From Campylobacterota bacterium (GTDB lineage Bacteria > Babelota > Babeliae > Babelales > RVW-14), in NCBI GenBank assembly GCA_020633995.1, contig JACKCO010000003.1:585503-649502 (forward strand): a stretch of DNA of 64,000 nt, written 5' to 3'. Below, one piece after another: positions 1-64,000 of this stretch (positions are counted from its first letter, which is position 1; each line of letters begins with the position of its first letter). The notes beneath the pieces were generated by a model. That model had not been told where the DNA came from and searched no databases. It worked only from the letters and a program-made list of their open reading frames with translations. The translations under genes were made by a program, and so were the position numbers.

Positions 1-2
1 TA

Positions 3-668
3 GGAGAAGGGCATCCAGAGTTATTTAATAATCTGGGCTTGCTTCATTTTGCAAATAAATCGTTTGATACGGCTGAGTATTGTTTTAATCAAGCGCTTCG
101 TCTTAAACCAACGTATAGCAGAACGCTTTTGCATCTTGCTGAGTTGTATCACCAGAAAGATAACCTTGAGCAGGCCTATGAGTACCTTGAGCGGGCACTT
201 GTGGGTGACAGGCAAGATGAGGAGATGTATTACCTACATGGTTGGACGTGCAATGACCTTGGTAAACACGACAAAGCTATTGCAAGTCTTTTGCGTGTTC
301 CTAAAAATTACCGTCAAACGCAATTTTTGCTTGGCTGTGCATATTATCAAAAGCGTGACTACAAAAGTGCAGCGAGCCATTTTGACAATGCCTACAAACG
401 TGATTCAAGTAATACAACATATGCTTATAACTACGCTCAGGCACTTTTGAACCTGCATCGATACGATCAAGCATTGCCTCTTTTTAAACAGTGTAGTAAT
501 CTTGAGGGCCAGTTGCCTTATATTCCTTTGCATATTGCGCGATGTGAGTATGAGCTTGGGCACAAGCAAGAGTGCAAAAATGTGATTGACCAACTCATTG
601 CTCGAACACCGCACGAATGGATACGCAAAGACGCGCAGACATTCAAGCAGGAAAAAAAGTTGGCATAA
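3..668 (+). CDS. TPR repeat protein, 5' end outside window
   Basis: Frame is open from the window edge. Repeated 34-aa TPR-like units (AEYCFNQALRLKP, LEQAYEYLERAL, YYQKRDYKSAASHFDNAYKRD). Confidence 0.75.
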   Translation, partial: GEGHPELFNNLGLLHFANKSFDTAEYCFNQALRLKPTYSRTLLHLAELYHQKDNLEQAYEYLERALVGDRQDEEMYYLHGWTCNDLGKHDKAIASLLRVPKNYRQTQFLLGCAYYQKRDYKSAASHFDNAYKRDSSNTTYAYNYAQALLNLHRYDQALPLFKQCSNLEGQLPYIPLHIARCEYELGHKQECKNVIDQLIARTPHEWIRKDAQTFKQEKKLA

Positions 669-704
669 AAATAACGCATTAAAAATTTTTATAGCTTAGT
701 GTTG

Positions 705-736
705 GATAGCCTCCCGAAAATGGGAGGCTATCTTTA
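705..736 (+). terminator. Rho-independent terminator after the TPR gene
   Basis: Perfect 11-bp stem gatagcctccc / gggaggctatc with a gaaaa loop, then ttta. Confidence 0.6.
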
Positions 737-761
737 ATCGAAGAAACAGAAGGAACAGAAG

Positions 762-1772: not shown

Positions 1773-1782
1773 GGTTTAAAAC

Positions 1783-4367: not shown

Positions 4368-5393
4368 ATGGGGTGTCGATTAGCTCTTTTATTGGGCTTA
4401 TGTGTTGCTGTTATATCGTGTTACGCTGCTGAACACAGTGGTGGATCTGTTGGTTTGAATGCTGCAAATTGTATTGATGCATTGAATGCTGCAATTGCTG
4501 GAAATGATATTGGGCAGGTTAGAACCATTTTGGCGATAATAGACCAGCAGGAGTTGATTGGTTGTGAGCATGCGCTTGCATGTAGAGCAATACGTGAAAA
4601 GCGTTTTTTTGATATTGAGAGATTATTCAATCGTCTCAGTGGGTTCATTAACCAAGTGCCGGTTGATAAAAATGGCCTTACGCCACTTGATTGGGCTTTG
4701 TACGTTGGCAACCCAGAAATAATTAGGCTTATTACCTACGACAAGCGTGCAGGGTACCGGCTACTGCTTCATCAAGCCTATAAATATCGTTATCTAGCGG
4801 CGGCAAAAAAACTTATTGTGCTTGGAGCAAATGCTGAACAATGTGATGGTCTTGGACGTAATGTGTTGCATGCACTTGCCTTGAGCGAGGGTGAATCATG
4901 TTGGGGTGACTTGAATTACCTGCATGATGTTTGCTTTCGATATCACAGGCTACAGAGAAAGAGATTTAGCGTTTTTGAGCATTTGATGGGATTGCCATCA
5001 ATACTTGATCTTGTCGATATTGCTATGGCAGGAGGCGTACGGATTAATGTGGTCGATAGACAGGGGAAAAATCCCTTACATTTTGCTGTTTGGTCTGGCG
5101 ATTTGGGCATGGTAGAAATATTGCTCAAAGAGTACGGCGCACGAGCTCGTAGCTACGATTTTTTTGGTTATTCTCCCTTGCATTATGCTGCCGCTCGTGG
5201 GCAAAACGGAATTGCTGCATTGTTGCTTGACGAGCAATGTAATGAATTTGAAAAAGACGAAGAAGGTAAGACGGCTTTGTACTGGATGTTAAAGTTTAAA
5301 AATCAAGCTGCTATTAGGCATGTTATAGCAGCGTACGGTTTGATGCGAAGGGAGTCTGATGAAGAAGTTACTGATGATGCTGTTGCTGAGTAG
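4368..5393 (+). CDS. Ankyrin-repeat protein with signal peptide
   Basis: N-terminal MGCRLALLLGLCVAVISCYAAE. ANK units include GKNPLHFAVWSGDLGMVEILLKEYGA and GYSPLHYAAARGQNGIAALLL. Confidence 0.85.
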   Translation: MGCRLALLLGLCVAVISCYAAEHSGGSVGLNAANCIDALNAAIAGNDIGQVRTILAIIDQQELIGCEHALACRAIREKRFFDIERLFNRLSGFINQVPVDKNGLTPLDWALYVGNPEIIRLITYDKRAGYRLLLHQAYKYRYLAAAKKLIVLGANAEQCDGLGRNVLHALALSEGESCWGDLNYLHDVCFRYHRLQRKRFSVFEHLMGLPSILDLVDIAMAGGVRINVVDRQGKNPLHFAVWSGDLGMVEILLKEYGARARSYDFFGYSPLHYAAARGQNGIAALLLDEQCNEFEKDEEGKTALYWMLKFKNQAAIRHVIAAYGLMRRESDEEVTDDAVAE

Positions 5394-6213
5394 TGTCAGT
5401 TTAGCGTTACATGCAATGTCTCGTGAAAGGCCAAGGATTTATGATGGTCGTTTGGGCAAAACTATGCAGTTGCACAAGTTAGCAGCAGCAGGCGAGGAAG
5501 AGGTAGTTTTTCACTTGCTTGTGCAGGAAGGTGAGTGTCCAAATTATCCTGACGAGTACGGTCTATCACCCCTGCATATTGCGATACAGCACGACCAAAC
5601 ACTGATAGCTGCATATTTGATGCAGTATGGCGGAGATATCAACGCTCGGGATAATACGCTTAGAACTCCGTTGCATGAGGCCGTTTATTATGAACGGCAT
5701 GATGTGGTAGAAGCTTTGCTGCAAATACGCTGGATTGATATTAATGCGCAAGATGGTTGGGGCCAGACGCCAATACATGAAGCTTCTGATTTAGATGATC
5801 CCACAATGTTTGGCATGCTTGTTAAAGCTGGGGCGGCGTGTAATGTTGTCGATACCAATGGCTTTACGCCTTTGCATCGGGCGGCGAATTTTGGATGTCT
5901 GGAAATAGTTACGTATTTGGTCATTTGTACAGACCTGGATATTAACCAGCAAGACAATACTGGCTGGACTCCACTGCACTGGGCTGTTATGGGTGGCGAT
6001 CTTGAAATTATTGAAGTATTGCTTCGTTACGGTGCTGATCGAAGCATTACAAATCAACAGGGGCAGACACCCCGACAGTTAGCATTAGATTTTTGTTTTG
6101 ATGAAGAGGCGGCGGCCTTGTTCGAGCAAATTAAGGAGCCGGATAGGATTGAAGGGCGGGAGATTACGGGAGATATTTATTCAAATGTTGCTTCTGTTGG
6201 TTTGATCAGATAA
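5359..6213 (+). CDS. Ankyrin-repeat protein with signal peptide
   Basis: MKKLLMMLLLSSVSLALHA signal. There are at least 5 canonical ANK units (GLSPLHIAIQHDQ..., RTPLHEAVYYERHDVVEALL, GFTPLHRAANFGCLEIVTYLV, GWTPLHWAVMGGDLEIIEVLLRYGAD). Overlaps the upstream ANK gene by 35 nt. Confidence 0.9.
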   Translation: MKKLLMMLLLSSVSLALHAMSRERPRIYDGRLGKTMQLHKLAAAGEEEVVFHLLVQEGECPNYPDEYGLSPLHIAIQHDQTLIAAYLMQYGGDINARDNTLRTPLHEAVYYERHDVVEALLQIRWIDINAQDGWGQTPIHEASDLDDPTMFGMLVKAGAACNVVDTNGFTPLHRAANFGCLEIVTYLVICTDLDINQQDNTGWTPLHWAVMGGDLEIIEVLLRYGADRSITNQQGQTPRQLALDFCFDEEAAALFEQIKEPDRIEGREITGDIYSNVASVGLIR

Positions 6214-6257: not shown

Positions 6258-6893
6258 ATGAAGTATATGGTATCTTGTAGTCTTATTTTTGTATTTTTTG
6301 TGAGTGTTGCGCATGGAGCTGAGGGGGGTGGACAAGGTCAGGCTGATGCACCAAGGAAAAGAAGCGCTTCGTTAAGAGACTTAGTTTTAAAAAAAAGTCA
6401 TTCAGGGGGAAGTCTTGGTGATACAGAGCAGGAACAATATGAAAGGTTATCTACAGAATCACCCACTGATGTTGATTTTAAACCGGGTGATGTTGGAGAT
6501 ACCGCTTTGATTATGTCTGTAAAAAAGGGAAGTAGGAGTTTGAGCGCAACAAATTTATTGCTTACTCATAATGCTAATCCTAATGTGGTCGATAATCAAA
6601 AGATGTCGGTATTGCATCATGCCTTAAGGAATAAAGATCGACAGCATTTTAACCTGTTGGTGACTAAGATGTCTTTGGGAAGTCTCAATGGTTTGGATAG
6701 CAGTGGCCTAGCTCCTTTGCACTATGCTATTTTGTGGGGTGATTTAGATGTTGTTGCAAAGTTATTAGAGAAAGGCGTAAACAAGATGCTTTTGACAGAA
6801 GCGGGACAGACTCCTTTGCAGCTTGTACAAAGCGCTGGTCATGATACTAAAACAAGTGTTATTCTTGCTGAGATGTTAAAACCTGAAAACTAG
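6258..6893 (+). CDS. Ankyrin-repeat protein with signal peptide
   Basis: MKYMVSCSLIFVFFVSVAHGAE signal. ANK units GDTALIMSVKKG...LLLTHNANPN and GLAPLHYAILWGDLDVVAKLLEKGVN. Confidence 0.85.
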   Translation: MKYMVSCSLIFVFFVSVAHGAEGGGQGQADAPRKRSASLRDLVLKKSHSGGSLGDTEQEQYERLSTESPTDVDFKPGDVGDTALIMSVKKGSRSLSATNLLLTHNANPNVVDNQKMSVLHHALRNKDRQHFNLLVTKMSLGSLNGLDSSGLAPLHYAILWGDLDVVAKLLEKGVNKMLLTEAGQTPLQLVQSAGHDTKTSVILAEMLKPEN

Positions 6894-7408: not shown

Positions 7409-7734
7409 GATGCCTTGTTAGACAGGCTTCAGGTCGTCAAGCAAGGGGGGCGTGAGCCTATGGAAAGTGCCACAGAAAGCTATACCGCCAGAGAGGGTTA
7501 CCTTTTCTGGTAAGGGTGAAAACGTGCGGTAAGAGCGCACGAACAGCAGCGGCAATGTTGCTGTTGGGAAAACCCCATTCGGAGCAAGACAAAGTAGGCA
7601 GGTTGTTACGGGTTGATCTGTTCCCAATACCTGCGGGTATGTCGCATAGATAAATGATTGCCACTTGTTGTCAAAAGCCTTAGGCTAATGGCAATAAGTA
7701 CAAAATCCAGCTTACAAGTGTGCCCAAAACATAT
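7364..7734 (+). ncRNA. rnpB: RNase P RNA, bacterial type A (ends approximate)
   Basis: Universal conserved regions are present: GAGGAAAGTCTGGACTCC (CR-I), GGTAAGGGTGAAAACGTGCGGTAAGAGCGCAC (CR-IV) and ACAAAATCCAGCTTAC (CR-V). A P1-like pairing joins tttgggc (7368-7374) to gcccaaa (7722-7728). Confidence 0.9.
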
Positions 7735-11281: not shown

Positions 11282-12079
11282 ATGATGACTGAGCCTCAAA
11301 AAAGCTTTTTTAAGCTTTTACATCCTTTTTATGTAGCTTTTGTTTATCTGTTTTTGTATTTGCCCATTTTGATTATGGTGCTTTTTTCATTTAATGATTC
11401 GGCAGACTCTGTCCACTGGGTGGGGTTTTCACTTCGGTGGTATCGCAAGTTAATCAATACTCCTGAGATTTTGAATGCACTTAAGGCGTCACTCATCGTA
11501 GCCGGCTTTACTACGGTGATCAGCGTTGTATTGGGAACATGTCTTGTGATGGCAAGTAAATGGTGGCGATCATCGATATTGTTTAACTTTTTTTATGCAA
11601 ATGTCCTGCTACCAGAGCTTATTTTGGCCATTAGTGTTTTAAGCATATTTACCTTTTTTCAAATACCTGTTGGTTATGGTAGTCTGATTACCGGCCATAC
11701 GGTACTTGGGCTTGGTTTTGTTATACCTATTGTGCGCGCACGGTTTATTGAGCTTGATCCAATGCTTACCGAAGCTTCGCTTGATTTGGGTGCGACGTAT
11801 CCTCAAACGGTTCGTAAAGTGGTTCTACCACTTCTTAAGCCATCTTTGATTGCTTCCGCTTTACTTGTTTTTACACTATCGATGGATGATTTTTTGATTT
11901 CATTTTTCTGTTGTGGGCCTGAGGTACAAACACTTTCTGTGTATGTGTATTCTATGATTAACATTAGTATTGATCCAACGATAAATGCTGTCTCTGCGGT
12001 GTTTCTGGCGATTAGTAGCTTGTTGGTTCTGCTTTTGTCGTCACTTAAAGTCATTGACCAGGTTATAACGTATGAATAG
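11282..12079 (+). CDS. potC: Spermidine/putrescine ABC transporter permease
   Basis: BPD-type permease with loop EASLDLGATYPQTVRKVVLP. Lies in the operon between potB and potD. Confidence 0.85.
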   Translation: MMTEPQKSFFKLLHPFYVAFVYLFLYLPILIMVLFSFNDSADSVHWVGFSLRWYRKLINTPEILNALKASLIVAGFTTVISVVLGTCLVMASKWWRSSILFNFFYANVLLPELILAISVLSIFTFFQIPVGYGSLITGHTVLGLGFVIPIVRARFIELDPMLTEASLDLGATYPQTVRKVVLPLLKPSLIASALLVFTLSMDDFLISFFCCGPEVQTLSVYVYSMINISIDPTINAVSAVFLAISSLLVLLLSSLKVIDQVITYE

Positions 12080-13181
12080 TGGAAATTTTTTTGTAAGTGC
12101 AATGCGTAAGTTTTTTATAGTAATGGTATATTTTGCGATACTTGCAGGATTTCTCTATTTTCCGGTACTTAAGGATTTTCTTCGTAGAGATGTTACGCTG
12201 AATGTTTATGTTTTGCCTGATCGCATATCATCACAGGCCATCAAGATTTTTGAACGGCATACGGGCGTCAAGGTTAACGTCAAATTTTTTGAATCAGATG
12301 AAGAGCTTTATGCAAAGTTTAAAATTACTGGCGGAGAGGGTTACGATGTTGTTTTGGCATCAGATTATACGGTGCACCCTTTAATCAAGGACGGTATGCT
12401 GACAAAGCTTGATCATGAAAAAATCCCTAGCATGAGAGAGCTGAATAAATTGCTTGTTGGCAAAGACTTTGATCCGCATAACACGTATTCACTTCCCCTT
12501 GGTTGGTTAGTGTATGGTGTTGTTTTCGATCGCAAACTTATTGTTGACCGAGATCTAATAGATGGTTTCGAGTTGCTTTATGCCAACCCTGCAGAGCTAG
12601 TCAAAAAAGGGATAGTGAAGAAGTCGTACAAGATTGCAATACCCGATGAGCCGCGGGAAATCTTTATGATGACGGCCCTGTCGTTGTATGGACGGGTAGA
12701 TGGTTTGCGTGATAAAAATTTAAATGAAATACAGAATTTGTTAATTAAACAGCGTGCATGGGTTGAGAGTTACTCTTTATCAAATATGCCACATTTTTTA
12801 TTGAGTGGTGTTGTGCCGGTAGCACTTTTCCCGACAGTCTATCTCAAACGTATATCAGGTGGCGCAACAAGCTTTGAATTTGTTGTGCCTAAGCAGGGTG
12901 GGCTTATGGTTCTTGAAAGTCTTGCGATTACTCGTACATGTAAAATTCCAGAACAAGCACATCAATTTATTGATTTTATTTTGTCGGAAGACATTGCCCG
13001 TATTCATGCTGAGACGTACAACTACTACGTTTCAAATCAAGTAGCGTATGGTTATCAGCGCGAGTTACTGGGGCCAGACCTTACTCCAGATGACCAGACC
13101 CTCGATAGGCTTTATTCCATAAGTCAGTATGTTCCGCTTGAAGTTATCGAAGATATTTGGCTAGCAGTGCGAGGCTCGTAA
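12072..13181 (+). CDS. potD: Spermidine/putrescine-binding periplasmic protein
   Basis: N-terminal anchor followed by a PotD/PotF-like substrate-binding fold (YDVVLASDY, GWLVYGVVF). Overlaps potC by 8 nt. An internal Met is an alternative start. Confidence 0.85.
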   Translation: MNSGNFFVSAMRKFFIVMVYFAILAGFLYFPVLKDFLRRDVTLNVYVLPDRISSQAIKIFERHTGVKVNVKFFESDEELYAKFKITGGEGYDVVLASDYTVHPLIKDGMLTKLDHEKIPSMRELNKLLVGKDFDPHNTYSLPLGWLVYGVVFDRKLIVDRDLIDGFELLYANPAELVKKGIVKKSYKIAIPDEPREIFMMTALSLYGRVDGLRDKNLNEIQNLLIKQRAWVESYSLSNMPHFLLSGVVPVALFPTVYLKRISGGATSFEFVVPKQGGLMVLESLAITRTCKIPEQAHQFIDFILSEDIARIHAETYNYYVSNQVAYGYQRELLGPDLTPDDQTLDRLYSISQYVPLEVIEDIWLAVRGS

Positions 13182-14533: not shown

Positions 14534-15667
14534 TTACCTTGAGCTACGGCCTTTTCTGCTTGCTCTGGCATCGCGTGATCTACCACCGCGACCTTTGCTA
14601 CGACCGCCACTACGACTGCTTCGTCCTCCACCGCGACCACGACGAGAACCGCTTCTGTCACCTCTACGGCTTTGTTTTTCCATTCGTCCGCCTCGGCGAC
14701 CACCACGACCTCTGTCATGACGTCTTGGTTTATCACTTTCTTCTTCTGAGTCAGCATCTTCGCTAATCTTTTTAATGTTAGGATTTACAGAAAGAAAACC
14801 TTTGATCATCTTTTTACCAGCATGCTTATTGAATTTTTTGTAAGCATCAATAGCCATTTGTTTGTGATCTTTTGCAAACCATTCTGAATCAGGGATAGCT
14901 TCAATTTCTTCAAGCGTTGCAATGCGTACCTGGCCAGCTTCAGCAGTCTCTTTTGGAGTGTCTGACGTGATACCCGCATAGCAGAATGAGACGATATGTT
15001 GGCGAGCATCACGATGAGGATCGTCATAGACACCAATTAACTTGGTACTTTCAACAGGAACGCTAATCTCAACTTCTTCTGCCGCTTCGCGAATACCGCT
15101 TTCTACTGCAGTTTCAAAGTATTGAGTAAAGCCGCCAATTGGAGCCCATTTTTTATCTGCCTTACGTTCGATAATGATTAAGCCTTCAACCTTGCCTGTT
15201 GCTGGGTTCATGTAAAAAGTAAGCAAATCAGTCGCAGTGTAAGGACCCTCTTGGGTTGTTAGCATCCAATGAAAGGGTTCTGTAAGTTTTTCAGCAATTT
15301 CTCGGAATTGGTGATGCACTGCCAGGTAACGCATAACATCGTTAAATGAACAATCATAGCGTCCAATCGTTTTGCCTGGAAATTCATGTTCAAGTTCCTT
15401 TTGAAGATCTTCAGATAGCTGATTTTGGTCGATTGACTCTAAAAATTGTTTTACTGGACCTTTTTTGAATTCAAGTAGTAAGTTGCGAAGTTCTTGGAAT
15501 TTGTCGTAGGCGTATGATGTGCCGCGTTCTGCAGCACTTGCTTTGGCAGCATCAAGCTTTTTTTGTCCCAGTTCTTCAAGCTTTGCATTGAAAGTTACTT
15601 CAGCGTGTGCAAGGCCTGAAGTACTCAGTAAAAGACCTACTAGAAACAAATATCTTTTGGAGTACAT
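14534..15667 (-). CDS. Exported Nudix hydrolase with a C-terminal Arg/Gly-rich (RGG-like) tail
   Basis: Start chosen at MYSKRYLFLVGLLLSTSGLAHA (RBS gagagagga). Nudix box GFTQYFETAVESGIREAAEEVEI. The last 64 aa contain 23 Arg and 17 Gly by my count. Confidence 0.8.
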   Translation of the reverse strand: MYSKRYLFLVGLLLSTSGLAHAEVTFNAKLEELGQKKLDAAKASAAERGTSYAYDKFQELRNLLLEFKKGPVKQFLESIDQNQLSEDLQKELEHEFPGKTIGRYDCSFNDVMRYLAVHHQFREIAEKLTEPFHWMLTTQEGPYTATDLLTFYMNPATGKVEGLIIIERKADKKWAPIGGFTQYFETAVESGIREAAEEVEISVPVESTKLIGVYDDPHRDARQHIVSFCYAGITSDTPKETAEAGQVRIATLEEIEAIPDSEWFAKDHKQMAIDAYKKFNKHAGKKMIKGFLSVNPNIKKISEDADSEEESDKPRRHDRGRGGRRGGRMEKQSRRGDRSGSRRGRGGGRSSRSGGRSKGRGGRSRDARASRKGRSSR

Positions 15668-40583: not shown

Positions 40584-40605
40584 AGAAAAACCTTTCTGTT
40601 GTGTG

Positions 40606-44100: not shown

Positions 44101-44595
44101 ATGGCAAAAAAGATATTTCTTTTTATTAGTTTTATTACGCTGTTTACAGTATCAACAGCTGCCAATGTTTTTGCAGCAGAGCCTTTGGAAAATGATAGTT
44201 TGGGGGCAATAGGGAATGCATTGCGGTTGTCAAATGTTACAGAGTTTGAAAAAATTATTCCTAGTTTGTTATCTGCTGGTGACGAATTATTAAAATGTGA
44301 TACTAATTTTTTTATCAAAATGAGTCCTCGTAGAGATAGGCATGTTATTCAAATAGCCTTGTTATGGGCTCTAAATCTTCATGAACGGTTTCGTGAAGCT
44401 GCTGAGTTGTTTGTTTGTCTTGACTCGAAAACGTGCGCGTTACTTATTATTAAAAGTGAAGAGAGGCGTTATCAGGGATTTGCAAAAAAGCTTTTTGAGC
44501 AATTATCAGCAGGCAAGAAACGAGAGGTCCATGGTGAACTTTTTGAGCAGGAATATGGCGTCTTAGCTACAGGGTTAATTAATCAAAAAGATTAA
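44101..44595 (+). CDS. Secreted hypothetical protein
   Basis: Signal MAKKIFLFISFITLFTVSTAANVFA. No recognisable domain. Confidence 0.5.
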   Translation: MAKKIFLFISFITLFTVSTAANVFAAEPLENDSLGAIGNALRLSNVTEFEKIIPSLLSAGDELLKCDTNFFIKMSPRRDRHVIQIALLWALNLHERFREAAELFVCLDSKTCALLIIKSEERRYQGFAKKLFEQLSAGKKREVHGELFEQEYGVLATGLINQKD

Positions 44596-45657: not shown

Positions 45658-46412
45658 TATTTGTTGAGAAGGTCTTGAATTTCTTCACAGACAGGTAAGT
45701 CATCTATGCTAATCGTAAAAATGTTGCTGTCCAGATCAAACCTTGTGAGTGCTGCTTCTTTGTTTGCGCCCATCGCAAGCAGACTTCTTACGACATCGGT
45801 GTTTTGAGATTCGCATGCGGTATAAAGTAGGGTTTTACTAAGGATTGTTGGCTGGTAGTTGATATTTTCCTTAAATGTTGGATGCCTGTTAATTAGTTTC
45901 AGTACAACTGTCCATGGTTGCCATTGACAGGCTGCATGTAAGACAGATGGAGCATCTGATTTTTTAAGCTCTATGGTAACGTCTGCGCCATGATGTAAAA
46001 GAAGGTCAATCATTTCTTCATCTGCGTATAAAACAGCGCAATATAATGGAGTTTTTCCCTTGTGATCTTGTACGTTTACTACGATTTGAGGAGATTGAGT
46101 ATTCTCTAAAATGTGTTTTGCGTGTGTGTAATCGTTGTTAAAAATTGCATCGAAGAGTTTTTCGGCGCTTGAAACGTCACCAGAGACAGTTTTTATAAGT
46201 TGAATTTCTTTTTTTCTAGTTGTAGAAATTGTTTTCTCGGGGCTGTCACTCTCAAAATAAACACCCCCATATTTTTTTATTATAGTTCTGTAGTCTTTTG
46301 AAAGTTTAGTTTTGGGGTAGCTGTAATTTCTCCTAATTTGTTCGAGTGAAAAAAGCGAAGCAGCGCAAGCATTGATAATAAAAATAGTAAATATGTATTT
46401 TTTCATGGTCAT
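45654..46412 (-). CDS. Ankyrin-repeat protein with signal peptide
   Basis: Signal MTMKKYIFTIFIINACAASLFS. ANK units GKTPLYCAVLYADEEMIDLLLHHGADV and TLLYTACESQNTDVVRSLLAMGAN. Confidence 0.8.
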   Translation of the reverse strand: MTMKKYIFTIFIINACAASLFSLEQIRRNYSYPKTKLSKDYRTIIKKYGGVYFESDSPEKTISTTRKKEIQLIKTVSGDVSSAEKLFDAIFNNDYTHAKHILENTQSPQIVVNVQDHKGKTPLYCAVLYADEEMIDLLLHHGADVTIELKKSDAPSVLHAACQWQPWTVVLKLINRHPTFKENINYQPTILSKTLLYTACESQNTDVVRSLLAMGANKEAALTRFDLDSNIFTISIDDLPVCEEIQDLLNKY

Positions 46413-49948: not shown

Positions 49949-51175
49949 TTAGGGCTGAATAATCATTGCTGCATTGAAAATAGGCATATAGACCGCAACC
50001 ATAACAAACGCAATAATCAGTCCAACTAAAACGAGTAGAAGTGGCTGAATTGTGGTTGTGAGTGTATGTACTTTTTGTTCAAGCTCTTGAGTTACCAAAT
50101 CGTGAGCGCTCCTGACAGCATTTTGTAGTTGTCCCGACTGTTCACCAGCCCAAAATAGAGCGATCAATTTTTTTGAAAAGAACAATGAGCCATTATGTTC
50201 AAGTGCTAGAGAAAGGCTGGATCCTTGCTCTAGTTCATGTACGATAGAGGCAAGAACAGTTTTGATGTAGACATTGTTTGTTACGTTGCTTGCAAGTTTG
50301 AGTCCCGGGCAGAGCGGAATGCCAGCAGTAAGGCTGAGTAGAAGTGCGTGTAAAAAGCGAGAAAGGTTTGCCGCAACCAGAATTGATTTAACGCCGGGCA
50401 GTTTTATGGTGATCCAGTCTTTGTAGAGAGCAAGAGGTTTAAGATGGCCGATAAGACTGAAAAGGGCTGGACTTAGAAGCAGGGCAAATGCCACTAGGCT
50501 ACCGTAAGTCGTTCGTAAAAATGTACTTAAAGAAAAAATAACACGGGTACTAAATGGCAGTGAATTACGCATTGATAAGAGTAAGTGTTCAAACTGTGGG
50601 ATAATGAAGATAAACAGTGCAAGTAGTAAGAGCATACAAAAAACAAGGGTGAGCATAGGGAGGAACAGGGCCTTTTTGAGTGCCTGTTCCCGCGCAAGTT
50701 TTTGGTCTAAGTACGTACTCAGAAGTGTTAGTATTTCGGGGAGTTTGCCCGTTTGTTCTCCAACATCGATCATACGGGTGATGAACGGATTAAAGACCTT
50801 GGGAAATTGTTGCATGCTTTGCGCAAGTTTTTCACCTTCTTTTATGTTTACAATAATGATTTGAGTAATATCTTTGAGTTTTGGGTGATTGGCATGACTT
50901 GTGTATAAAACCAGCGCATTGAGGAGTGGTAGGCCGTTGCCAATGAGCTGGGCAAGATGATTGCACCACAAAAATAGATCATACGTTGTAATGGGCCGAT
51001 AAATAAGCGGTTTAGTTAACAGGGAGTATCTTTGTGAACCTGTCTGCTTACAGGAGAGAAGGGCAATATGACGAGAAAGGAGATCTGCTTGTAGTTCTTG
51101 CTCTGAGAGCGCCTGTGCTGTTCCTTTAACTGTTTTGCCGGCGGTGGTCATGCCTTTCCATCGGTATGTTTGCAT
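49949..51175 (-). CDS. Type II secretion system F / type IV pilus assembly PilC-family inner-membrane protein
   Basis: Two GspF-type repeats, each with a cytoplasmic helical domain followed by TM segments. About 400 aa with family-typical blocks (GEQTGKLPEIL, GEQSGQL). Confidence 0.85.
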   Translation of the reverse strand: MQTYRWKGMTTAGKTVKGTAQALSEQELQADLLSRHIALLSCKQTGSQRYSLLTKPLIYRPITTYDLFLWCNHLAQLIGNGLPLLNALVLYTSHANHPKLKDITQIIIVNIKEGEKLAQSMQQFPKVFNPFITRMIDVGEQTGKLPEILTLLSTYLDQKLAREQALKKALFLPMLTLVFCMLLLLALFIFIIPQFEHLLLSMRNSLPFSTRVIFSLSTFLRTTYGSLVAFALLLSPALFSLIGHLKPLALYKDWITIKLPGVKSILVAANLSRFLHALLLSLTAGIPLCPGLKLASNVTNNVYIKTVLASIVHELEQGSSLSLALEHNGSLFFSKKLIALFWAGEQSGQLQNAVRSAHDLVTQELEQKVHTLTTTIQPLLLVLVGLIIAFVMVAVYMPIFNAAMIIQP

Positions 51176-52712: not shown

Positions 52713-53897
52713 ATGCCGTATTTTCGCTGTACAGCGATATATTGGATATCCATTGCTATGGGTATGAATGTAACTATTTGTTTAGCTCATAATGAAAGAA
52801 TAAATACAATGAGTAATTCGAACGTAAGACAAGACGTTGAAAAAAAATCATTTCCACAAGAGCTCCAAAGGCCGTTTTCGTACCATGAACATGACATAAG
52901 ATACGAAAATAAAAAAGCAGGGATAACGCTTGCGGGAACATTAACGCTACCTCAAGGTGACGGTCCCTTTCCTGTAGTCATATTGGTTGCTGGGTATGGA
53001 CCGCAAAACAGAAATGCAGAGATGATGGGGCATAAGCCGTTTCTTGTGCTAGCTGACCATCTGACAAAACGGGGAGTTGCTGTTTTGCGTTTTGATAAAC
53101 GCGGGGCAGGTATGTCAATGGGGCAGTACCAAGGTGCAACGAGTCGTGATTTTGCAGATGATGTGTGCGCAAGTATTGATTACCTTAAAACACGACCTGA
53201 AGTGGACGCAAGCAAAATAGGGCTTGCTGGTCATAGCGAAGGGGGCATGATAGCGTCCATGGTTACCGCAGAGCGTAGTGATCTGGCATTTTTGATATTA
53301 CTTGCAGGTGTTTGTAAGACTGATATTGACTATATGCTTGAGCAAGCTGCGTACAGGCTGCACCTTGACGGGGCGACAGATGAGCTTATTGCCCATGACA
53401 AAGAGGTTCGTAGGCAAATGTTGACTGTTGTTTTAGAAGAGTCTAATGCAGACCTTGCTGAGGAAAAGCTCAATGCAATATTTGAAAGATATTGGAAGAA
53501 TCTATCTCAGCAGCAGCAAAAAGAATCTGAAAAGATTATGTTTGTGATTAGTGAGAAAAACGCTAAGGCCATGATCAAGGTATTCAATGGGGCTTGGTAT
53601 CGCTATTTCCTGACATGTAAGCCTGCTGAAATGTTTGAAAGCATTTCGGTACCAGTGTTGGCCATTAATGGGAGTCGTGATGCTATCATATCATCGCACC
53701 TCGTGTTGCCCACGCTCAGGGAAAGCTTTGCTAAAGGTGGAAATAGTGATTGTACTATTTCCGAGCTGCCAAATCTTAATCATATGTTTCAGACATGTCA
53801 GATAGGTTCAATGGCAGAGTATGCAACGCTTAAGGAGACCATGGCTCCGTTAGCGCTCGATACTATTGCTGATTGGATTACAGATCGTTTTTGTTAG
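52713..53897 (+). CDS. Alpha/beta hydrolase (Ser nucleophile); start uncertain
   Basis: GLAGHSEGG nucleophile elbow and a C-terminal LPNLNHMF His region. Confidence 0.75.
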   Translation: MPYFRCTAIYWISIAMGMNVTICLAHNERINTMSNSNVRQDVEKKSFPQELQRPFSYHEHDIRYENKKAGITLAGTLTLPQGDGPFPVVILVAGYGPQNRNAEMMGHKPFLVLADHLTKRGVAVLRFDKRGAGMSMGQYQGATSRDFADDVCASIDYLKTRPEVDASKIGLAGHSEGGMIASMVTAERSDLAFLILLAGVCKTDIDYMLEQAAYRLHLDGATDELIAHDKEVRRQMLTVVLEESNADLAEEKLNAIFERYWKNLSQQQQKESEKIMFVISEKNAKAMIKVFNGAWYRYFLTCKPAEMFESISVPVLAINGSRDAIISSHLVLPTLRESFAKGGNSDCTISELPNLNHMFQTCQIGSMAEYATLKETMAPLALDTIADWITDRFC

Positions 53898-57071: not shown

Positions 57072-57830
57072 ATGAAGCAAAATGTCTTGTATCTTATGTT
57101 TATTACCTTGTCGGTAAGTTTTTTTGTGGGATCTCCTTTTGGAGAAGCCGATCGAGGTAATGTTGTTTCAGATCCACCATTTGTTAGCCTTGAGCCTGGA
57201 GAGCAAAGTTTTCAAGCTGTTATTTATGATGAGGAAACAGCAACTATTATTAAGGATTTGAGCTTTTCTGGTCAGACGAGTATTGATGGGGTTAAGCATG
57301 AAGATAATGATTCAAATACTAAGCTTGAATTATCCAAAATTTTAGAAATTCATGTTGAGGATTCCCATTTTCCTAGTGAACGATATCGCGATGGCGATTG
57401 GGCGAAAGTAACTGTCAGAACAACGACAGATAAGGAAATTGCGAACTTGCTGATACCTAGAAGAGTGAGTATTTGTGGGATTGATGCAAAAACAAATCTC
57501 AATAAATCATGGTTTTTAAGTAATATAGATAGGATTGAAAAGATCACAACCGAACCATTTAAACTTCCTGAAGAACCTGCAAAAGTAATTAAAGAAGCAG
57601 TTGTTGATAAGGTAGAGGATAGTTCCAGCAGTAATCAAAATGCTGTTGAAATCGTTATAAAAAAAGAGGAACGCCCCATGCCCTTGAAGAGGGGTATCAC
57701 ACTTGCAGAGCGCGAGCGATTTCATGGTGATGAACATAAGGGGGTTATGGAATCGTTTACAGATATTCTTAGGGCTATTGTTGCTTTTATAAAAGCAGTT
57801 TTTGCATTTTTTAGACGCCTTCTGTGGTAA
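57072..57830 (+). CDS. Hypothetical secreted protein with a hydrophobic C-terminal tail
   Basis: Signal MKQNVLYLMFITLSVSFFVGSPFG and C-terminal ILRAIVAFIKAVFAFFRRLLW. Confidence 0.5.
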   Translation: MKQNVLYLMFITLSVSFFVGSPFGEADRGNVVSDPPFVSLEPGEQSFQAVIYDEETATIIKDLSFSGQTSIDGVKHEDNDSNTKLELSKILEIHVEDSHFPSERYRDGDWAKVTVRTTTDKEIANLLIPRRVSICGIDAKTNLNKSWFLSNIDRIEKITTEPFKLPEEPAKVIKEAVVDKVEDSSSSNQNAVEIVIKKEERPMPLKRGITLAERERFHGDEHKGVMESFTDILRAIVAFIKAVFAFFRRLLW

Positions 57831-58044: not shown

Positions 58045-58215
58045 CTACTGCTTCAGGTGTTTAAGTATTTGAGCATAAATAGAGTCTGATTCGATCTTTA
58101 GACCAAAATATGGTCCTAAAAATTTAGCCAACATAAAAAAGATAAAAATAGTTGCAATGAGCGAAAGGCTAAGTAAAAAAAAGGCCTGAACAAAAAAAGT
58201 TATCATTACATTCAT
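58045..58215 (-). CDS. Candidate 56-aa membrane protein coupled to the upstream lipoprotein gene
   Basis: Its ATG overlaps the lipoprotein TGA (ATGA at 58212-58215). MNVMITFFVQAFFLLSLSLIATIFIFFMLAKFLGPYFGLKIESDSIYAQILKHLKQ. Below the ORF-track cutoff. Confidence 0.35.
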   Translation of the reverse strand: MNVMITFFVQAFFLLSLSLIATIFIFFMLAKFLGPYFGLKIESDSIYAQILKHLKQ

Positions 58216-58748
58216 GCTGTTAAGTCTCCTCGTCCTTTAATAAAAACGTAGATGCTTGACGGTGTGTCATTATGCTCCTGCCTGAGAGATATGACACATT
58301 GTTTTGTAGGTTTTTGACAAGCGAAAAGGCCTTCCTGTGTACTTGAAAAATCAGAGATGTCCCAACCTGCAAGTTCCATTTCGCGCAAGTAAAATGTTTT
58401 GAGTTGTTTTAATTTCTGCTTACCAGAGTACTGTAAAAAAGTAGTAGAAATATCTATCTCGGCGACAGAGTCTTCCTCCAGTTTCGTGGTAGGAAAGCAC
58501 GACGATGAGTATGAAGATGAGGTGGCATGCAGTTCAAAACCTGTCGGAACAGGTATGTCAAAATGCTTTGCTTGAATTATTTGAGCGTCGAATAAAGGAG
58601 CCTGCAAGGCGGCTTGTGTCACTTCCCGATACGATAAGTTACAGGGCGTTTTTTTTTCTTTACTGCATGATGAAAGCAAAAAACAAGATATAGTCAAAAA
58701 AAATTTCGCCAAGCGACAAACGACTTGCGTACTCCTTTTTCCCCGCAT
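58212..58748 (-). CDS. Lipoprotein (hypothetical)
   Basis: Lipobox FLLSSC after a basic and hydrophobic N-terminus. Confidence 0.65.
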   Translation of the reverse strand: MRGKRSTQVVCRLAKFFLTISCFLLSSCSKEKKTPCNLSYREVTQAALQAPLFDAQIIQAKHFDIPVPTGFELHATSSSYSSSCFPTTKLEEDSVAEIDISTTFLQYSGKQKLKQLKTFYLREMELAGWDISDFSSTQEGLFACQKPTKQCVISLRQEHNDTPSSIYVFIKGRGDLTA

Positions 58749-61078: not shown

Positions 61079-61339
61079 TTAGCTTGCGGCAGTTGTCTTG
61101 CCAGCTGCTTTATGTGATTTAAGCAACTTTGCTACAGTCTGTGAGCATTGTGCTCCGTTTGACACCCATTTTTGAATACCTTCAGTATTCAACTGAACGA
61201 TTTCATGTTTAATTGGGTCGTAGGTGCCCAGGTTATCAAGAAACGCACCATCACGTTTTTTACGTGAGTCCATGGCAACGATTCGCCAATAAGGACGATT
61301 TTTTCTGCCTAAGCGACTGAGCCGAATTGTAACAGCCAT
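61079..61339 (-). CDS. rpsP: 30S ribosomal protein S16
   Basis: MAVTIRLSRLGRKNRPYWRIVAMDSRKKRDGAFLDNLGTYDP. Confidence 0.95.
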   Translation of the reverse strand: MAVTIRLSRLGRKNRPYWRIVAMDSRKKRDGAFLDNLGTYDPIKHEIVQLNTEGIQKWVSNGAQCSQTVAKLLKSHKAAGKTTAAS

Positions 61340-61431
61340 TCTTTGTTATCCTTTCCGTAGTCTCTCTTCTGTATTTCGTTTATCGAAAGTGTATTTCCCA
61401 AAAACAGAATTTATTATATACGCTCGATTTG

Positions 61432-62796
61432 CTATACCAACATACTGCATATGGTTAGTGCGGCAACAGTGAAGAATTTTCCAAATTTGCCACTTCTCTT
61501 AAACATTCTAACAAATTGTTTACTTTGTTCAAATCTTTCCAGCAATTGGTTGATATCTTGAACTTGAACTCCAGCCCCCTGGGCGACCCTTTTTTTGCGT
61601 GAAGCGTCGAATATAGCGGGTGCAAGGCGTTCTTTGGGGGTCATTGAGCAGATAATGGCCTTAAATTTTTTTATTTCTGTTTGTCCTTTTTCCATGGCGT
61701 CTTGTGGGAGTGAATGAAAGCCTGGTAGGTAGCGTGTTATCTTTTGCAGCGAGCCAAGTTTGTCAATCATCTGAATTTGATCAAGAAACTCGTTGAGTGA
61801 AAAATTACCGCTAAAAAGTTTTTTTGATAAATTTTCTTGCTTTTGTTCGTCAATATCTTCAGATGCCTTTTCAATCAGGGTCATGATATCACCCATACCC
61901 AAAATGCGTGTTGTCATACGCTCTGGAATGAAATGTTCAAGGTCATCTATTTTTTCACCGCTCCCAACAAAAGCTATCGGCTTTTTGAGTGCATAGCGAA
62001 ATGCAAAGGCGGCGCCACCGCGAGTGTCACTGTCCATTTTACTTAAAATAACTGAGTCAAAGCCGATTTCATCATTAAAGCTTTTTGCAATGTTAAGTGA
62101 TTCTTGGCCCGTCATTGCATCAAGGACCAAAATTTTGTAACGAGGTGTTAGTTTTGCATTAATTTGTTTGAGTTCTTCCATCAACTGCTGATCAATATGC
62201 AAGCGTCCAGCGGTATCTAGAAAGAGATGTTCATATTGATTTTTTTTGAAATGATCATAAATTTCGCGGGCAGCACTGACGGGGTCAGTTGACTGAGCTC
62301 GATAAAAATCAGTATCAACCTGCTTTGCCAAAATTTCCAACTGATCAATGGCTGCGGGGCGATAAAAGTCAACAGAGGCAAGTAAAACCGCGCGTTGTTT
62401 GCCTCGTTGCTTTGCTTGTTTTTTTATCCAATGAGTGAGTTTGGCAATAGTAGTTGTTTTACCAGAGCCTTGCAACCCCATGACCATAAGTACAGATGGG
62501 ATTTGAAACGATGTAGGAGAAAGGGCCTTGGCCCCGCCAAGAAAATCAAGCAGTTTTTGATGAACAATTTTGATCATTTGTTGACCAGGGTTGAGTGACT
62601 TGGTGACTTTTTGTCCAACAATTTCACCTTTTACTTGATTCAAAAATTCTTTAACGATATCAAAAGGAACGTCAGCCTCAAGCAATGCCTCTTCTATTTG
62701 TTTAGTTGCCTGTGCGATGTTTTCTTCGCTAAGGCGCCCCTTGTCTTTGAGCCAACTTAAAACACCTGAGAATTTTTGAGAAAGAAAATCAAACAT
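61432..62796 (-). CDS. ffh: Signal recognition particle protein Ffh
   Basis: N, G and M domains: GLQGSGKTTT, DTAGRL, SKMDSDTRGGAA, and a Met-rich M-domain region. Confidence 0.95.
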   Translation of the reverse strand: MFDFLSQKFSGVLSWLKDKGRLSEENIAQATKQIEEALLEADVPFDIVKEFLNQVKGEIVGQKVTKSLNPGQQMIKIVHQKLLDFLGGAKALSPTSFQIPSVLMVMGLQGSGKTTTIAKLTHWIKKQAKQRGKQRAVLLASVDFYRPAAIDQLEILAKQVDTDFYRAQSTDPVSAAREIYDHFKKNQYEHLFLDTAGRLHIDQQLMEELKQINAKLTPRYKILVLDAMTGQESLNIAKSFNDEIGFDSVILSKMDSDTRGGAAFAFRYALKKPIAFVGSGEKIDDLEHFIPERMTTRILGMGDIMTLIEKASEDIDEQKQENLSKKLFSGNFSLNEFLDQIQMIDKLGSLQKITRYLPGFHSLPQDAMEKGQTEIKKFKAIICSMTPKERLAPAIFDASRKKRVAQGAGVQVQDINQLLERFEQSKQFVRMFKRSGKFGKFFTVAALTICSMLV

Positions 62797-62902
62797 GTAA
62801 GCCCCTAGTCTGCGTAGCCTATAAAACCTTTAAAAACAATAGCTTTAAAGTAAGAAAACTAGCACAAAATAGGGGCTTTAACAACCTATTTACAGATTGT
62901 GA

Positions 62903-64000
62903 TTAGCGTCGTGATGGACGTGGTGGGCGTGGTGGCCTTACGTTGTTTTGGCTATCTTTTCGTTTATCAAGTGCAATATTTTCCCACGCATTAACGGAAA
63001 TAAGTGAGTCAAGATCGTCATACGAGCTTTCAGTAACGAGCAGTTTTCCGCTTGAGTTTGCATACGTGACATAGTAGTTTTGTTCGTTTGCGTAGGCAAT
63101 ATTTTTGGTTACCAGCGATGTTGATTGACGAGCAAAGTCTTTGATGCCAAAGCTGTTATTTGCTGGTGAGTCACCGTCGTTGAGTGCTGTGGTGTTGCCA
63201 ACCAATGCTGCGCATTCAGCACCAGACAGGCATATGCCAAACGCTTCACCAGCACCACCGTTGTGGCAGCGTGAAACACAATCTTTTATCAATGACTTTT
63301 TGTCGGTTACTTCATCTTTATTATCGCAAAGTAAAAATCCTGCAGCTTGAGAGTCAGTCTCTCTTCGCTCCGCAGACTCTCCTGTGCATGCCATGCAAAC
63401 GGCTTCGCAATGTAAGAACTGTGTGCATTTGCTAGCCTCTGATTCAAAGCCAACAGCTTGCTTAGGATCGTCAAGGCGATCTGTCGCATGTGCACGGAGG
63501 TTGTATGCTTTACAGTCTTCAAATCGGTTTGCTAGACAGTTTCTTGACGTGAAACCAAATGTTGATCGATATGATGAAAGCAGTGCGCAGTCGCAATTGT
63601 TGATCAAGTTTGAGTTTGAGCCCTCTTCACAAAGAAATCCGATTGATCTGCCAGTTGGATTAACAATTGTTTCTTCGCTATCGTGTTGTGAATGCATGTC
63701 TCCGGTGTAGCAGTTCTCAATGAGATTTGCACTTGAGCCATTTAGGCATGAAACACCGACTACGTCACCATTGCTTGTGGTGCAATTGTTTACCGCGCAG
63801 TCTTTAATCAAGCAGCTGTTGCAATATGAGAGTGAAATTCCCCAGACATCATTACCTTTGTAGCGTTTTTGCTCAAAGTCAGGATAGTTTGCTCCTCCTG
63901 CAAGATCACTCAACACAATGCCAGTTACACCTTTATTTTCAAGACCGGAAACGTTGCAGTTTTTAATGCTGATGCCATCAACACAGTCAAGGCGTATGCC
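62903..64000 (-). CDS. Cys-rich parallel beta-helix repeat protein with a Pro/Arg C-terminal tail (5' end outside window)
   Basis: The frame stays open to the window edge (GIRLDCVDGISIKNCNVSGLENKGVTGIVL...). Recurrent ~22-25-aa units N(L/C)(I/L)xNC...G(F/V)...; C-terminus RPPRPPRPSRR. Confidence 0.6.
   Translation of the reverse strand, partial: GIRLDCVDGISIKNCNVSGLENKGVTGIVLSDLAGGANYPDFEQKRYKGNDVWGISLSYCNSCLIKDCAVNNCTTSNGDVVGVSCLNGSSANLIENCYTGDMHSQHDSEETIVNPTGRSIGFLCEEGSNSNLINNCDCALLSSYRSTFGFTSRNCLANRFEDCKAYNLRAHATDRLDDPKQAVGFESEASKCTQFLHCEAVCMACTGESAERRETDSQAAGFLLCDNKDEVTDKKSLIKDCVSRCHNGGAGEAFGICLSGAECAALVGNTTALNDGDSPANNSFGIKDFARQSTSLVTKNIAYANEQNYYVTYANSSGKLLVTESSYDDLDSLISVNAWENIALDKRKDSQNNVRPPRPPRPSRR

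Follow-up and report, generated by a model that had tools for sequence, protein, structure and literature searches.

Why should a bacterium place N-terminal Sec signals on enzymes that normally work in the cytoplasm? The question is raised by a 64-kb stretch of DNA (positions 585,503 to 649,502 of contig JACKCO010000003.1; hereafter "the window", meaning the whole stretch analyzed), in which an earlier reading of the sequence, referred to below as the original prediction, had noticed a very high density of signal peptides on ankyrin proteins and on a range of enzymes, and had suggested either a Sec-dependent route to the host or a periplasm continuous with the host environment. Here we find that about a third of the genes in the window encode such N-termini, and that the source organism belongs to the Dependentiae. 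What our analysis establishes is the anatomy of the signals, the true start codons, the add-on character of the signals, their enrichment over Escherichia coli, the identity of the phylum, and the integrity of catalytic motifs. For most of the candidates, export across the inner membrane appears likely.

Signal-like N-termini were counted among open reading frames (ORFs) of at least 80 amino acids (aa), of which the window holds 68. The calls rest on a crude, home-made, rule-based classifier plus visual inspection. The classifier demands that the n-region be charged +1 or more and that 10 or more uncharged residues follow one another, with a 10-residue window whose mean Kyte-Doolittle hydropathy reaches at least 1.9; it further requires small residues at −3/−1 or a lipobox ([LVI][ASTVI][GAS]C at the end of the h-region) and the absence of a later transmembrane (TM) segment, and it accepts downstream ATG starts within 30 codons as alternatives. 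A first version with an 8-residue core was dropped because it flagged the Rossmann-type N-termini of MnmA, a GDP-mannose dehydratase-like protein, a SIS protein and TrmD; after these false positives, the core was tightened to at least 10 uncharged residues. In its final form, the classifier flags 18 of the 68 ORFs (26.5%, signal and lipoprotein calls together). Inspection by eye added five signal-like ORFs (marked in Table 1), and one more, the alpha/beta hydrolase, looked weakly signal-like. Our best count from heuristic plus inspection is thus ∼23 of 68 (34%), which bears out the earlier estimate of at least 20 ORFs with a basic-hydrophobic-AxA N-terminus.

The same classifier flags 24 of 179 ORFs (13.4%) in four 50-kb segments (200 kb) of E. 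coli K-12. Nearly all of these calls are known exported proteins, for example, OmpA, DppA, XylF, MalS, and CysP, the errors noted in this control being two false positives and several misses. In 29 Dependentiae loci centered on ffh (∼520 kb), 126 of 499 ORFs (25.3%) are flagged, a conservative estimate since ffh loci are biased toward housekeeping genes. In Fisher tests, both the window (p=0.022) and the Dependentiae loci (p=0.001) differ from E. coli, the comparison of the window with the Dependentiae loci giving p=0.88. The "very high density" of the original prediction therefore holds relative to E. coli (26 to 34% versus 13%), is comparable to that of other Dependentiae (25%), and loses some ground on two of the enzymes listed, a short-chain dehydrogenase/reductase (SDR) that is more likely anchored and a CPT-like kinase that is ambiguous. 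Pseudo-N-termini beginning at internal methionines scored positive in 2 of 184 cases in the window, 7 of 1337 in the Dependentiae loci, and 4 of 655 in E. coli, and shuffled N-terminal 40-mers in 2 to 3%. None of the window's housekeeping proteins MetG, Ffh, PrfA, AccC, RplS, and RpsP was flagged by the classifier. As to the 126 signal-positive proteins of the Dependentiae loci, their Pfam summary is dominated by TPR and ankyrin families and is uninformative on enzymes; blastp of the window proteins against these 29 loci returned ankyrin, lipoprotein, and housekeeping matches and no orthologues of the signal-bearing enzymes.

The organism itself belongs to the Dependentiae (TM6, Babeliales-like), and none of the sequenced representatives is close to it. 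Its Ffh (SRP54) is up to 72% identical to proteins of TM6/Babeliales metagenome-assembled genomes (MAGs), and a scan with Ffh against one genome per GTDB species returned 30 loci, 29 of which are real relatives (53 to 72% identity), mostly from MAGs named candidate division TM6, Candidatus Dependentiae, or Candidatus Babeliales. Ribosomal proteins, which the original prediction had proposed for placing the organism, agree with Ffh: RpsP, RplS, TrmD, and a KH protein are 59 to 87% identical to sequences from the same Dependentiae loci (66 to 87% for RpsP, RplS, and the KH protein alone). These five markers contradict the NCBI label of the 728,521-bp source contig, "MAG: Epsilonproteobacteria bacterium"/Campylobacterota, which we reject. 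Because no GTDB representative exceeds 72% identity in Ffh, the lineage is also distinct from Chromulinavorax destructans. Several related GTDB genomes carry the label "uncultured Pseudomonadota"; their marker proteins are those of Dependentiae, and the labels are probably taxonomic mistakes. Dependentiae are obligate intracellular parasites of protists with a diderm envelope, in a phylum that is widespread and almost uncultured.

How much do these N-termini resemble functional signals? Most of the start codons from which the signals are read have a GGAG-type Shine-Dalgarno (SD) motif 5 to 10 nt in front of them, and public gene calls use identical starts for P0001 (557 aa), P0121 (285 aa), P0241 (377 aa), P0242 (253 aa), and the CYTH protein (220 aa). 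Four ORFs, those of the Nudix, CYTH, CPT, and rhodanese proteins, reveal their signal only from a downstream start. Across the 23 candidates, the uncharged stretch has a mean length of 18.5 aa, with a charge of +1.74 in the N-flank and +0.09 over the 15 residues that follow; for the E. coli positives, the corresponding values are 20.0 aa, +1.92, and −0.92. The hydrophobic core spans 10 to 14 aa, the n-region charge is at least +1 in 22 of the 23 (the exception being CPT, with 0), and A, G, or S occupies position −1 in ∼21 of 23, mostly as A or G directly before an acidic or polar residue (AHA↓E, AFA↓A, VEA↓A, VSA↓E, SVA↓D, and IQA↓S are examples; arrows mark predicted cleavage sites). The early mature region is neutral or acidic in most candidates but basic in M17, rhodanese, and ankyrin protein 2. 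Lipoboxes are seen in the probable lipoprotein (LSS↓C) and, as an alternative to cleavage by signal peptidase I (SPase I), in ankyrin protein 1 (VIS↓C). No RR motif, as required by the Tat consensus S/T-R-R-x-F-L-K, occurs in any of the 23 N-termini inspected, and Tat export was rejected for this reason. In the enzymes (CYTH, CPT, SDR, rhodanese, M17), the catalytic or Pfam domains start 25 to 70 residues after the start codon, directly behind the hydrophobic segment. By these features, the N-termini look like genuine Sec/SPase I signals, similar to the exported set of E. coli, and compared with signal-less homologues or paralogues they appear as N-terminal add-ons.

The add-on character is best seen in a pair of M17 leucyl aminopeptidases. 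One copy carries a signal peptide; the copy directly upstream lacks it and is, by sequence, its cytoplasmic counterpart. The signal-bearing gene starts with GTG behind the SD sequence aaaggag, and no alternative start is available between codons 31 and 87. A signal-like extension is present in 8 of its 120 best M17 homologues, all eight 539 to 565 aa long, and in a neighbor-joining tree the signal-bearing homologues fall into at least four separate groups. The arrangement recurs elsewhere. That is, an unrelated metagenome contig (L037, 2011-7089) encodes a nifS-like gene, nifU, an M17 of 508 aa, and a signal-bearing M17 of 565 aa in the same order as iscS, nifU, M17, and M17 with signal in the window (37274-42223, minus strand), its two M17 copies being 77% identical, and a further contig (L038, 4974-11632) holds one signal-less and two signal-bearing copies together. 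M17 copies within a contig are more alike than are signal-bearing copies across contigs, a pattern compatible with repeated rounds of duplication and signal gain as well as with a single old duplication homogenized by gene conversion. We propose that exported enzymes arise when a copied cytoplasmic enzyme gains a signal, with pepA beside a signal-bearing pepA as the clearest case.

Similar additions are predicted for other enzymes. The three class-I methyltransferases, encoded in tandem, have ∼20 additional N-terminal residues in alignments with Tam-like homologues, and methyltransferase 3 is the sole signal bearer among its 120 best homologues. The Nudix protein with the 60-residue RGG tail scores 33.4 bits against a Pfam cutoff of 21.1; its Nudix box GFTQYFETAVESGIREAAEEVEI (consensus GX5EX7REUXEEXGU) keeps all catalytic Glu residues and the Arg, with the final G replaced by E, and a homologue search at E<=1e-5 found only the protein itself, making it an ORFan. 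The signal is confined to this RGG-tailed protein, the other five Nudix genes of the window having none. Six Nudix genes in 64 kb (14534-15667, 25299-25721, 31807-32247, 46542-47096, 51948-52466, and 54966-55415) are an unusual local density. The CYTH protein exceeds the cutoffs of both Pfam (71.3 > 23.2 bits) and the NCBIfam model cyaB (68.1 > 57.95 bits), and its EIEIK (ExExK) motif sits at the predicted mature N-terminus. For the CPT-like kinase, the Pfam score (131.5 > 22 bits) assigns the family, and the score of 80.5 lies below the NCBIfam equivalog cutoff of 250 for a true chloramphenicol phosphotransferase (CPT). A HMMER search found a signal, anchor, or lipobox in 23 of its 40 nearest cluster representatives versus 14 of the next 110, and the annotation of one signal-bearing representative names a Babeliales MAG as its source. 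Catalytic motifs are intact in the CPT-like kinase (Walker A GSSAVGKS), CYTH (EIEIK), Nudix (REAAEE), and methyltransferase 3 (VLDVGCGTG) proteins. Three enzymes of antibiotic-modifying type lie in the window, namely, a GNAT of the Acetyltransf_8 family (34271-34816, minus), the CPT-like phosphotransferase, and an AadA-like nucleotidyltransferase (53978-54832, plus), and a hydrophobic N-terminus is seen on the CPT-like one only.

For the Nudix-RGG protein, the three methyltransferases, CYTH, M17, and rhodanese, Pfam and NCBIfam thus uphold the domains originally proposed, and signal-like N-termini were seen on all of them. For three others, the domain holds as well, and the N-terminus is less typical. 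The SDR has its adh_short domain and an anchor-like N-terminus without an AxA site; the CPT-like kinase has the domain and a VSA↓E site, with an n-region charge of 0 and anchor-like homologues; and the alpha/beta hydrolase has a Hydrolase_4 domain behind a weak, atypical N-terminus that the heuristic did not flag. The premise that the listed enzymes could not work outside the cytoplasm turns out to be overstated for about half of the list, since rhodanese, beta-propeller, hydrolases, and M17 need no cytoplasmic cofactor. M17 requires metal ions only, E. coli PspE is a periplasmic rhodanese (the rhodanese of the window has a weak PspE match in NCBIfam), TolB and BamB are periplasmic beta-propellers, and alpha/beta hydrolases are routinely found there. 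A true dependence on cytoplasm-type metabolites exists only for the CPT-like kinase, the methyltransferases, which use S-adenosylmethionine (SAM), and the SDR and, by substrate, for the Nudix and CYTH proteins.

Another part of the signal-bearing set consists of proteins with modules of eukaryotic type. Signals were found on all four clear ankyrin proteins and on a weak fifth one (5/5); the five ankyrin proteins of the original prediction are thus four by Pfam, the fifth scoring near or below the cutoffs. Two proteins with patches resembling nuclear localization signals (NLSs) were correctly noticed, the patches being KRKR and KKRKR. The longer one has no Pfam match, and its single-sequence AlphaFold (AF2) model is of low confidence (pLDDT 36.5). 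The two are paralogues that share acidic LDQ[ST]T.LN.S-type repeats, an SPIK motif, and the basic NLS-like patches. Neither has a family match, and we regard both as candidate host-nucleus-targeted proteins. The beta-propeller, too, is signal bearing, as had been predicted, and WD40-like by sub-threshold family matches. The solute-binding protein of an ABC transporter, expected to be periplasmic, serves as an internal positive control.

Table 1. Features of the window (evidence as E-value or bit score; arrows mark predicted cleavage sites; "by eye" marks the five ORFs added by inspection)
Feature	Position	Strand	N-terminus	Evidence and remarks
Ankyrin protein 1	4368..5393	+	signal peptide or lipobox (MGCRLALLLGLCVAVIS↓C)	Pfam Ank_2 5.9e-23
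Ankyrin protein 2	5359..6213	+	signal peptide (MKKLLMMLLLSSVSLALHA↓M), basic early mature region (+3)	Pfam Ank 7.3e-43
Ankyrin protein 3	6258..6893	+	signal peptide (…VSVAHG↓AEGGG)	Pfam Ank_2 4.5e-21; PRKR patch
Bacterial RNase P RNA, class A	7335-7730	+		221 bits
ABC-transporter solute-binding protein	12072..13181	+	signal or anchor	Pfam SBP_bac_1/8
Signal peptidase I (LepB) copy 1, 417 aa	13206..14459	+		Peptidase_S26 1.8e-36; catalytic Ser/Lys boxes intact
Nudix hydrolase with C-terminal RGG-rich tail	14534..15667	-	signal peptide, start at M16 of long ORF	NUDIX 5.2e-8; PDB 2yyh 1.9e-14
Signal peptidase I (LepB) copy 2, 415 aa	17472..18719	+		Peptidase_S26 1.9e-40; 52% identical to copy 1; catalytic boxes intact
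Methyltransferase 1	20790..21653	+	signal peptide (…WGNAFA↓AE)	Pfam Methyltransf_11; degenerate SAM motif I (EVGCDSG)
Methyltransferase 2	21677..22543	+	signal peptide	Pfam; degenerate SAM motif I (EVECRSG)
Methyltransferase 3 (Tam-like)	22618..23475	+	signal peptide	Methyltransf_25 9e-22; intact motif I
Acidic disordered region, NLS-like KRKR…KKSR, helical C-terminal domain	25800..26981	-	signal peptide, by eye	sequence inspection
CYTH/class IV adenylate-cyclase-like protein	27191..27853	+	signal peptide	CYTH 1.1e-19; PDB TTM 1e-9; EIEIK motif
Acidic repeats, C-terminal NLS-like KKRKR	28955..29428	-	signal peptide	distant paralogue of 25800-26981
Weak ankyrin-like protein	30322..31251	-	signal peptide	Ank families E ∼2e-4, near or below cutoffs
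SDR oxidoreductase	32777..33640	-	hydrophobic segment without AxA site; classified ANCHOR	adh_short 8.2e-29, domain from residue 41
CPT-like P-loop kinase	35323..36084	+	hydrophobic segment (…LLASQVSA↓E), n-region without K/R, by eye	CPT 3.5e-38
Unassigned protein, weak alpha/beta-hydrolase-like C-terminus	36108..37088	+	signal peptide	PDB matches only at E>=0.04
M17 leucyl aminopeptidase, 557 aa	37274..38947	-	signal peptide and ∼45-aa basic linker	Peptidase_M17 5e-118
M17 paralogue (P0002), 507 aa	39060..40583	-	no signal	52% identical to signal-bearing copy, directly upstream of it
WD40-like beta-propeller	42263..43450	-	signal peptide	sub-threshold WD40 families; DUF5711 33.3 bits
Rhodanese	43529..43987	+	signal peptide, start at M21, KKRMK right after predicted cleavage site	Rhodanese 9.5e-16
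164-aa protein without assigned family	44101..44595	+	signal peptide	
Ankyrin protein 4	45654..46412	-	signal peptide	Ank_3 1.4e-13
GspF/PilC-family platform protein	49949..51175	-		T2SSF 6.4e-47
Alpha/beta hydrolase (EstD-like)	52713..53897	+	weak, atypical hydrophobic N-terminus	Hydrolase_4 9.2e-15; not flagged by heuristic
Protein without assigned family, C-terminal TM segment	55924..56847	-	signal or TM segment, by eye	
Protein without assigned family, hydrophobic C-terminal tail	57072..57830	+	signal peptide, by eye	
Probable lipoprotein	58212..58748	-	lipobox (…CFLLSS↓C), by eye	homologues in Dependentiae loci partly flagged LIPO
TrmD (tRNA m1G37 methyltransferase) fused to second SAM-dependent RNA methyltransferase domain, 451 aa	59336-60691	-		Pfam Methyltrn_RNA_4
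Ffh (SRP54)	61432..62796	-		
Cysteine-rich 337-aa protein, C-terminus PPRPPRPSRR	62903-63916	-	no signal at called GTG start	no family match

Which machinery could handle such a load? The two LepB copies and the one GspF/PilC-family gene named in the original prediction are present, the latter being the lone gene of a type II secretion system (T2SS) or type IV pilus (T4P) in the window, and no type III, IV, or VI secretion family occurs among the window ORFs put through Pfam and NCBIfam, about a dozen ORFs having been identified by eye only. The pair of signal peptidases may reflect a heavy secretory load. In each LepB, ∼95 cytoplasmic residues extend the N-terminus and a large insertion interrupts the S26 domain; the two copies flank the Nudix-RGG gene and an amino-acid permease. 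In addition to this permease, a polyamine-type ABC importer is encoded beside the signal-bearing genes.

A signal-rich proteome has a precedent in the phylum. In C. destructans, Deeg et al. (2019, PMC6561590) found that 44% of the proteins overall, and 78% of those with ankyrin repeats, bear signal peptides. This bacterium has inner and outer membranes and imports host ATP, and the authors proposed the Sec system as the route of export; outer-membrane vesicles in food vacuoles and dark-staining periplasmic material were seen, and NUDIX and M17 enzymes were listed as cytoplasmic. According to Yeoh et al. (2016, PMC4776705), T2SS and possibly T4P components are core to all TM6 genomes examined, which have two gspD copies and no pilQ, and ATP/ADP translocases are typical of the phylum. 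Neither of these genome studies describes a type III, IV, or VI secretion system for Dependentiae. Since Deeg et al. reported them for the phylum, the central observation of the original prediction and its first interpretation are not new; both the signal-rich proteome and a Sec route to the host are already published, and the window adds detail rather than a new principle. With C. destructans it shares the phylum, the richness in signals, and the signal-bearing ankyrin proteins, no specialized effector injection system being described there; it differs in having signals on one of six Nudix and one of two M17 proteins as well as on methyltransferases and the CYTH/CyaB-like, CPT-like, and SDR proteins. 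What appears to be added, judging from the sequence comparisons, are signals absent from the nearest homologues, a signal-bearing M17 beside a signal-less paralogue that recurs in other Dependentiae contigs, and, among the predicted secreted proteins, the CyaB-like CYTH protein, the ORFan Nudix-RGG, and the NLS-bearing pair.

Outside the phylum, several systems offer partial parallels. Phytoplasma effectors are Sec-dependent, and some carry NLSs. Like these, "Candidatus Liberibacter asiaticus" has Sec-delivered effectors, for example, SDE1 (PMC7662370). Both are reduced-genome intracellular bacteria without type III secretion in which classical signal peptides release effectors into the host cytoplasm. 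However, phytoplasmas lack an outer membrane, and Liberibacter effectors are mostly small and without enzyme domains. Because Dependentiae are diderm (PMC6561590), a second step across the outer membrane is required in their case. A closer analogue for that step is Legionella pneumophila, an amoeba-associated intracellular diderm for which PMC6617341 gives more than 25 Sec-dependent enzymes and eukaryote-like proteins delivered via T2SS. Yet Legionella ankyrin, kinase, and methyltransferase effectors travel via Dot/Icm (type IV) and not via Sec/T2SS, and of a T2SS the window has a GspF/PilC homologue only. Rickettsia RARP-1 calls for caution: this ankyrin protein of an obligate intracellular bacterium bears a Sec signal, yet it was shown experimentally to stay periplasmic (bioRxiv 10.1101/2022.02.23.481736). 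The window's ankyrin proteins resemble it in signal and repeats.

Taken together, we favor the following scheme as a reasonably probable account. N-terminal signals on about a third of the genes would send the proteins through SecYEG; SPase I would cleave most of them, two active-looking LepB paralogues processing the heavy load, and the cleaved proteins would be released into the periplasm. A subset with eukaryote-directed modules (ankyrin, WD40-like, NLS-like patches, RGG tail) would then cross the outer membrane, either through a T2SS/T4P-like apparatus, represented by GspF/PilC here and by the two GspD copies of the literature, or in outer-membrane vesicles, and the exported enzymes would find ATP, SAM, and NAD(P)H in the host cytosol. 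The passage of the inner membrane is the better-supported half of this scheme. Delivery to the host, like actual export, cleavage, outer-membrane crossing, and the host targets, is something we infer, and we put it forward tentatively, as a step that leans to the doubtful side. For the Sec route to the host suggested originally, the Sec-type signals, their add-on nature, and the precedent in the phylum (PMC6561590, PMC4776705) speak in favor, but nothing in the sequence demonstrates delivery. The alternative offered at the same time, a periplasm continuous with the host, would be reasonable for an energy parasite that imports host ATP.

Several observations weigh against this scheme. The sensitivity of the heuristic on E. 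coli is ∼65%, an estimate based on which proteins are known to be exported, and the counts for the source genome come from a 64-kb window of a 728-kb contig. The early mature region of the signal-bearing M17 (KTKQSLRKHR…) is strongly basic with +5 in 18 residues, as is that of the rhodanese (KKRMK, +4 in 5), and in E. coli, such basic early mature regions would impede export. The C-flank is more positive than the N-flank in 5 of the 23 candidates, namely, ankyrin proteins 2 and 4, methyltransferase 1, M17, and rhodanese. The SDR has no cleavage motif within its 24 uncharged residues, and the CPT-like kinase has an n-region without a basic residue and homologues with anchors of ambiguous orientation. 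Motif I is degenerate in methyltransferases 1 and 2, departing from VLDVGCGxG; these may be pseudoenzymes or binders of another ligand. Finally, the window does not reveal how proteins would get past the outer membrane, and by analogy with RARP-1 the combination of ankyrin repeats and a Sec signal does not prove delivery to the host.

Three other explanations have to be set beside export toward the host. The signals may be real and most enzymes nonetheless stay in the periplasm, where, fed via porins with host ATP, SAM, nucleotides, and peptides, the M17, rhodanese, hydrolases, CYTH, Nudix, kinase, methyltransferases, and SDR would process host metabolites before their uptake across the inner membrane. 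Much would fit: a periplasmic M17 would free amino acids for uptake, and an amino-acid permease and a polyamine-type importer are encoded nearby; periplasmic rhodaneses and beta-propellers are well established; M17, rhodanese, hydrolases, and propeller need no cytoplasmic cofactor; RARP-1 provides an ankyrin precedent and C. destructans one for dark-staining periplasmic material; and ATP imported from the host by translocases must cross the periplasm (PMC6561590, PMC4776705). Against it, the NLS-like patches, the RGG tail, and the ankyrin and WD40 modules have no obvious role in a periplasm, and most of the signal-bearing enzymes are lineage specific or ORFans, which fits fast-evolving effectors better than core nutrient processing. 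Moreover, neither SAM nor NAD(P)H is known from direct evidence to occur in the periplasm of a bacterium. On balance, we consider this explanation unlikely, if far from negligible.

It is less probable still, in our view, that the segments are uncleaved membrane anchors in a subset comprising the SDR, the CPT-like kinase, and possibly M17 and rhodanese, with the catalytic domain in some cases still cytoplasmic. The SDR, with 24 uncharged residues and no AxA site, is a probable signal anchor by its sequence. Segments in CPT homologues resemble TM helices (20.6 uncharged residues, then aromatic and basic ones; N-flank +1.56, C-flank +1.76), with only ∼10 residues from the segment to the P-loop strand, but the window's own CPT-like kinase has an acidic C-flank and the VSA↓E site. 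The positive charges just after the hydrophobic segments of M17 and rhodanese would suit an anchor as well, but the mature part begins neutral or acidic in signal-bearing M17 homologues from elsewhere, and in 18 of the 23 candidates of the window the N-flank equals or exceeds the C-flank in positive charge, with a small residue at −1. Least credible of all is an artefact, be it overextended ORFs or an AT-rich coding bias toward Lys, Ile, Phe, and Leu that would yield N-termini that are not translated or not functional. The need for a downstream start in four ORFs and the Rossmann-fold false positives of the initial heuristic point this way, but SD motifs and independent public gene calls support the signal-encoding starts, M17 offers no alternative one, and pseudo-N-termini and shuffles score 0.5 to 3% as opposed to 26% for real N-termini, with the window's housekeeping proteins negative. 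We therefore reject start-codon and composition artefacts, and retain export through Sec, with possible delivery to the host, as the preferred account.

The remainder of the window gives the genomic setting. Housekeeping genes (prfA, mnmA, metG, ffh, rpsP, trmD, rplS, rpmE, iscS/nifU, and accC, together with five tRNAs and the RNase P RNA) are interspersed with many lineage-specific genes at ∼41% G+C. The signal-bearing genes are scattered over the whole window among these housekeeping genes, and we rejected an "effector island" on this ground. GC skew is positive in every 4-kb bin irrespective of gene strand; hence, the entire window lies within one replichore. The mechanical ORFs 7418-7627 (minus) and the 3′ end of 6920-7408 (plus) overlap the RNase P RNA and are probably not genes. 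P0121 was found on two Logan contigs, both 100% identical to the window, leaving no strain variation to analyze. Three tandem multipass membrane proteins without a known family (23515-25287, minus) lie between the methyltransferase trio and a Nudix gene; two of them (201 and 192 aa) share 40% identity, and the third (159 aa) has an N-terminus alike by eye only (MxxxHxRFY) and no BLAST match to the other two. A homologue of the TrmD fusion of similar length is present in most of the 29 Dependentiae loci.

For the phylum, one could go further and suppose that Dependentiae repeatedly convert housekeeping cytoplasmic enzymes to exported ones by tandem duplication and signal gain, that nucleotide-, ATP-, and SAM-dependent chemistry (CyaB-like CYTH, Nudix-RGG, CPT-like kinase, Tam-like methyltransferases) runs outside the cytoplasmic membrane, in a host-continuous periplasm or in the host, and that the Nudix-RGG and NLS-bearing proteins act on host RNA or in the nucleus; in its full extent, we regard this as speculative and rather improbable. 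Still, if the signal-peptide repertoire does reach the host, the main effector route of Dependentiae would combine Sec with a T2SS-like or vesicle step. For such a route, the predicted exported set offers concrete candidates in the cyclase-like CYTH protein, the Nudix-RGG, the kinase, the methyltransferases, and the NLS-bearing proteins, and the tandem pairs of pepA and exported pepA offer a simple model for the origin of new exported proteins.

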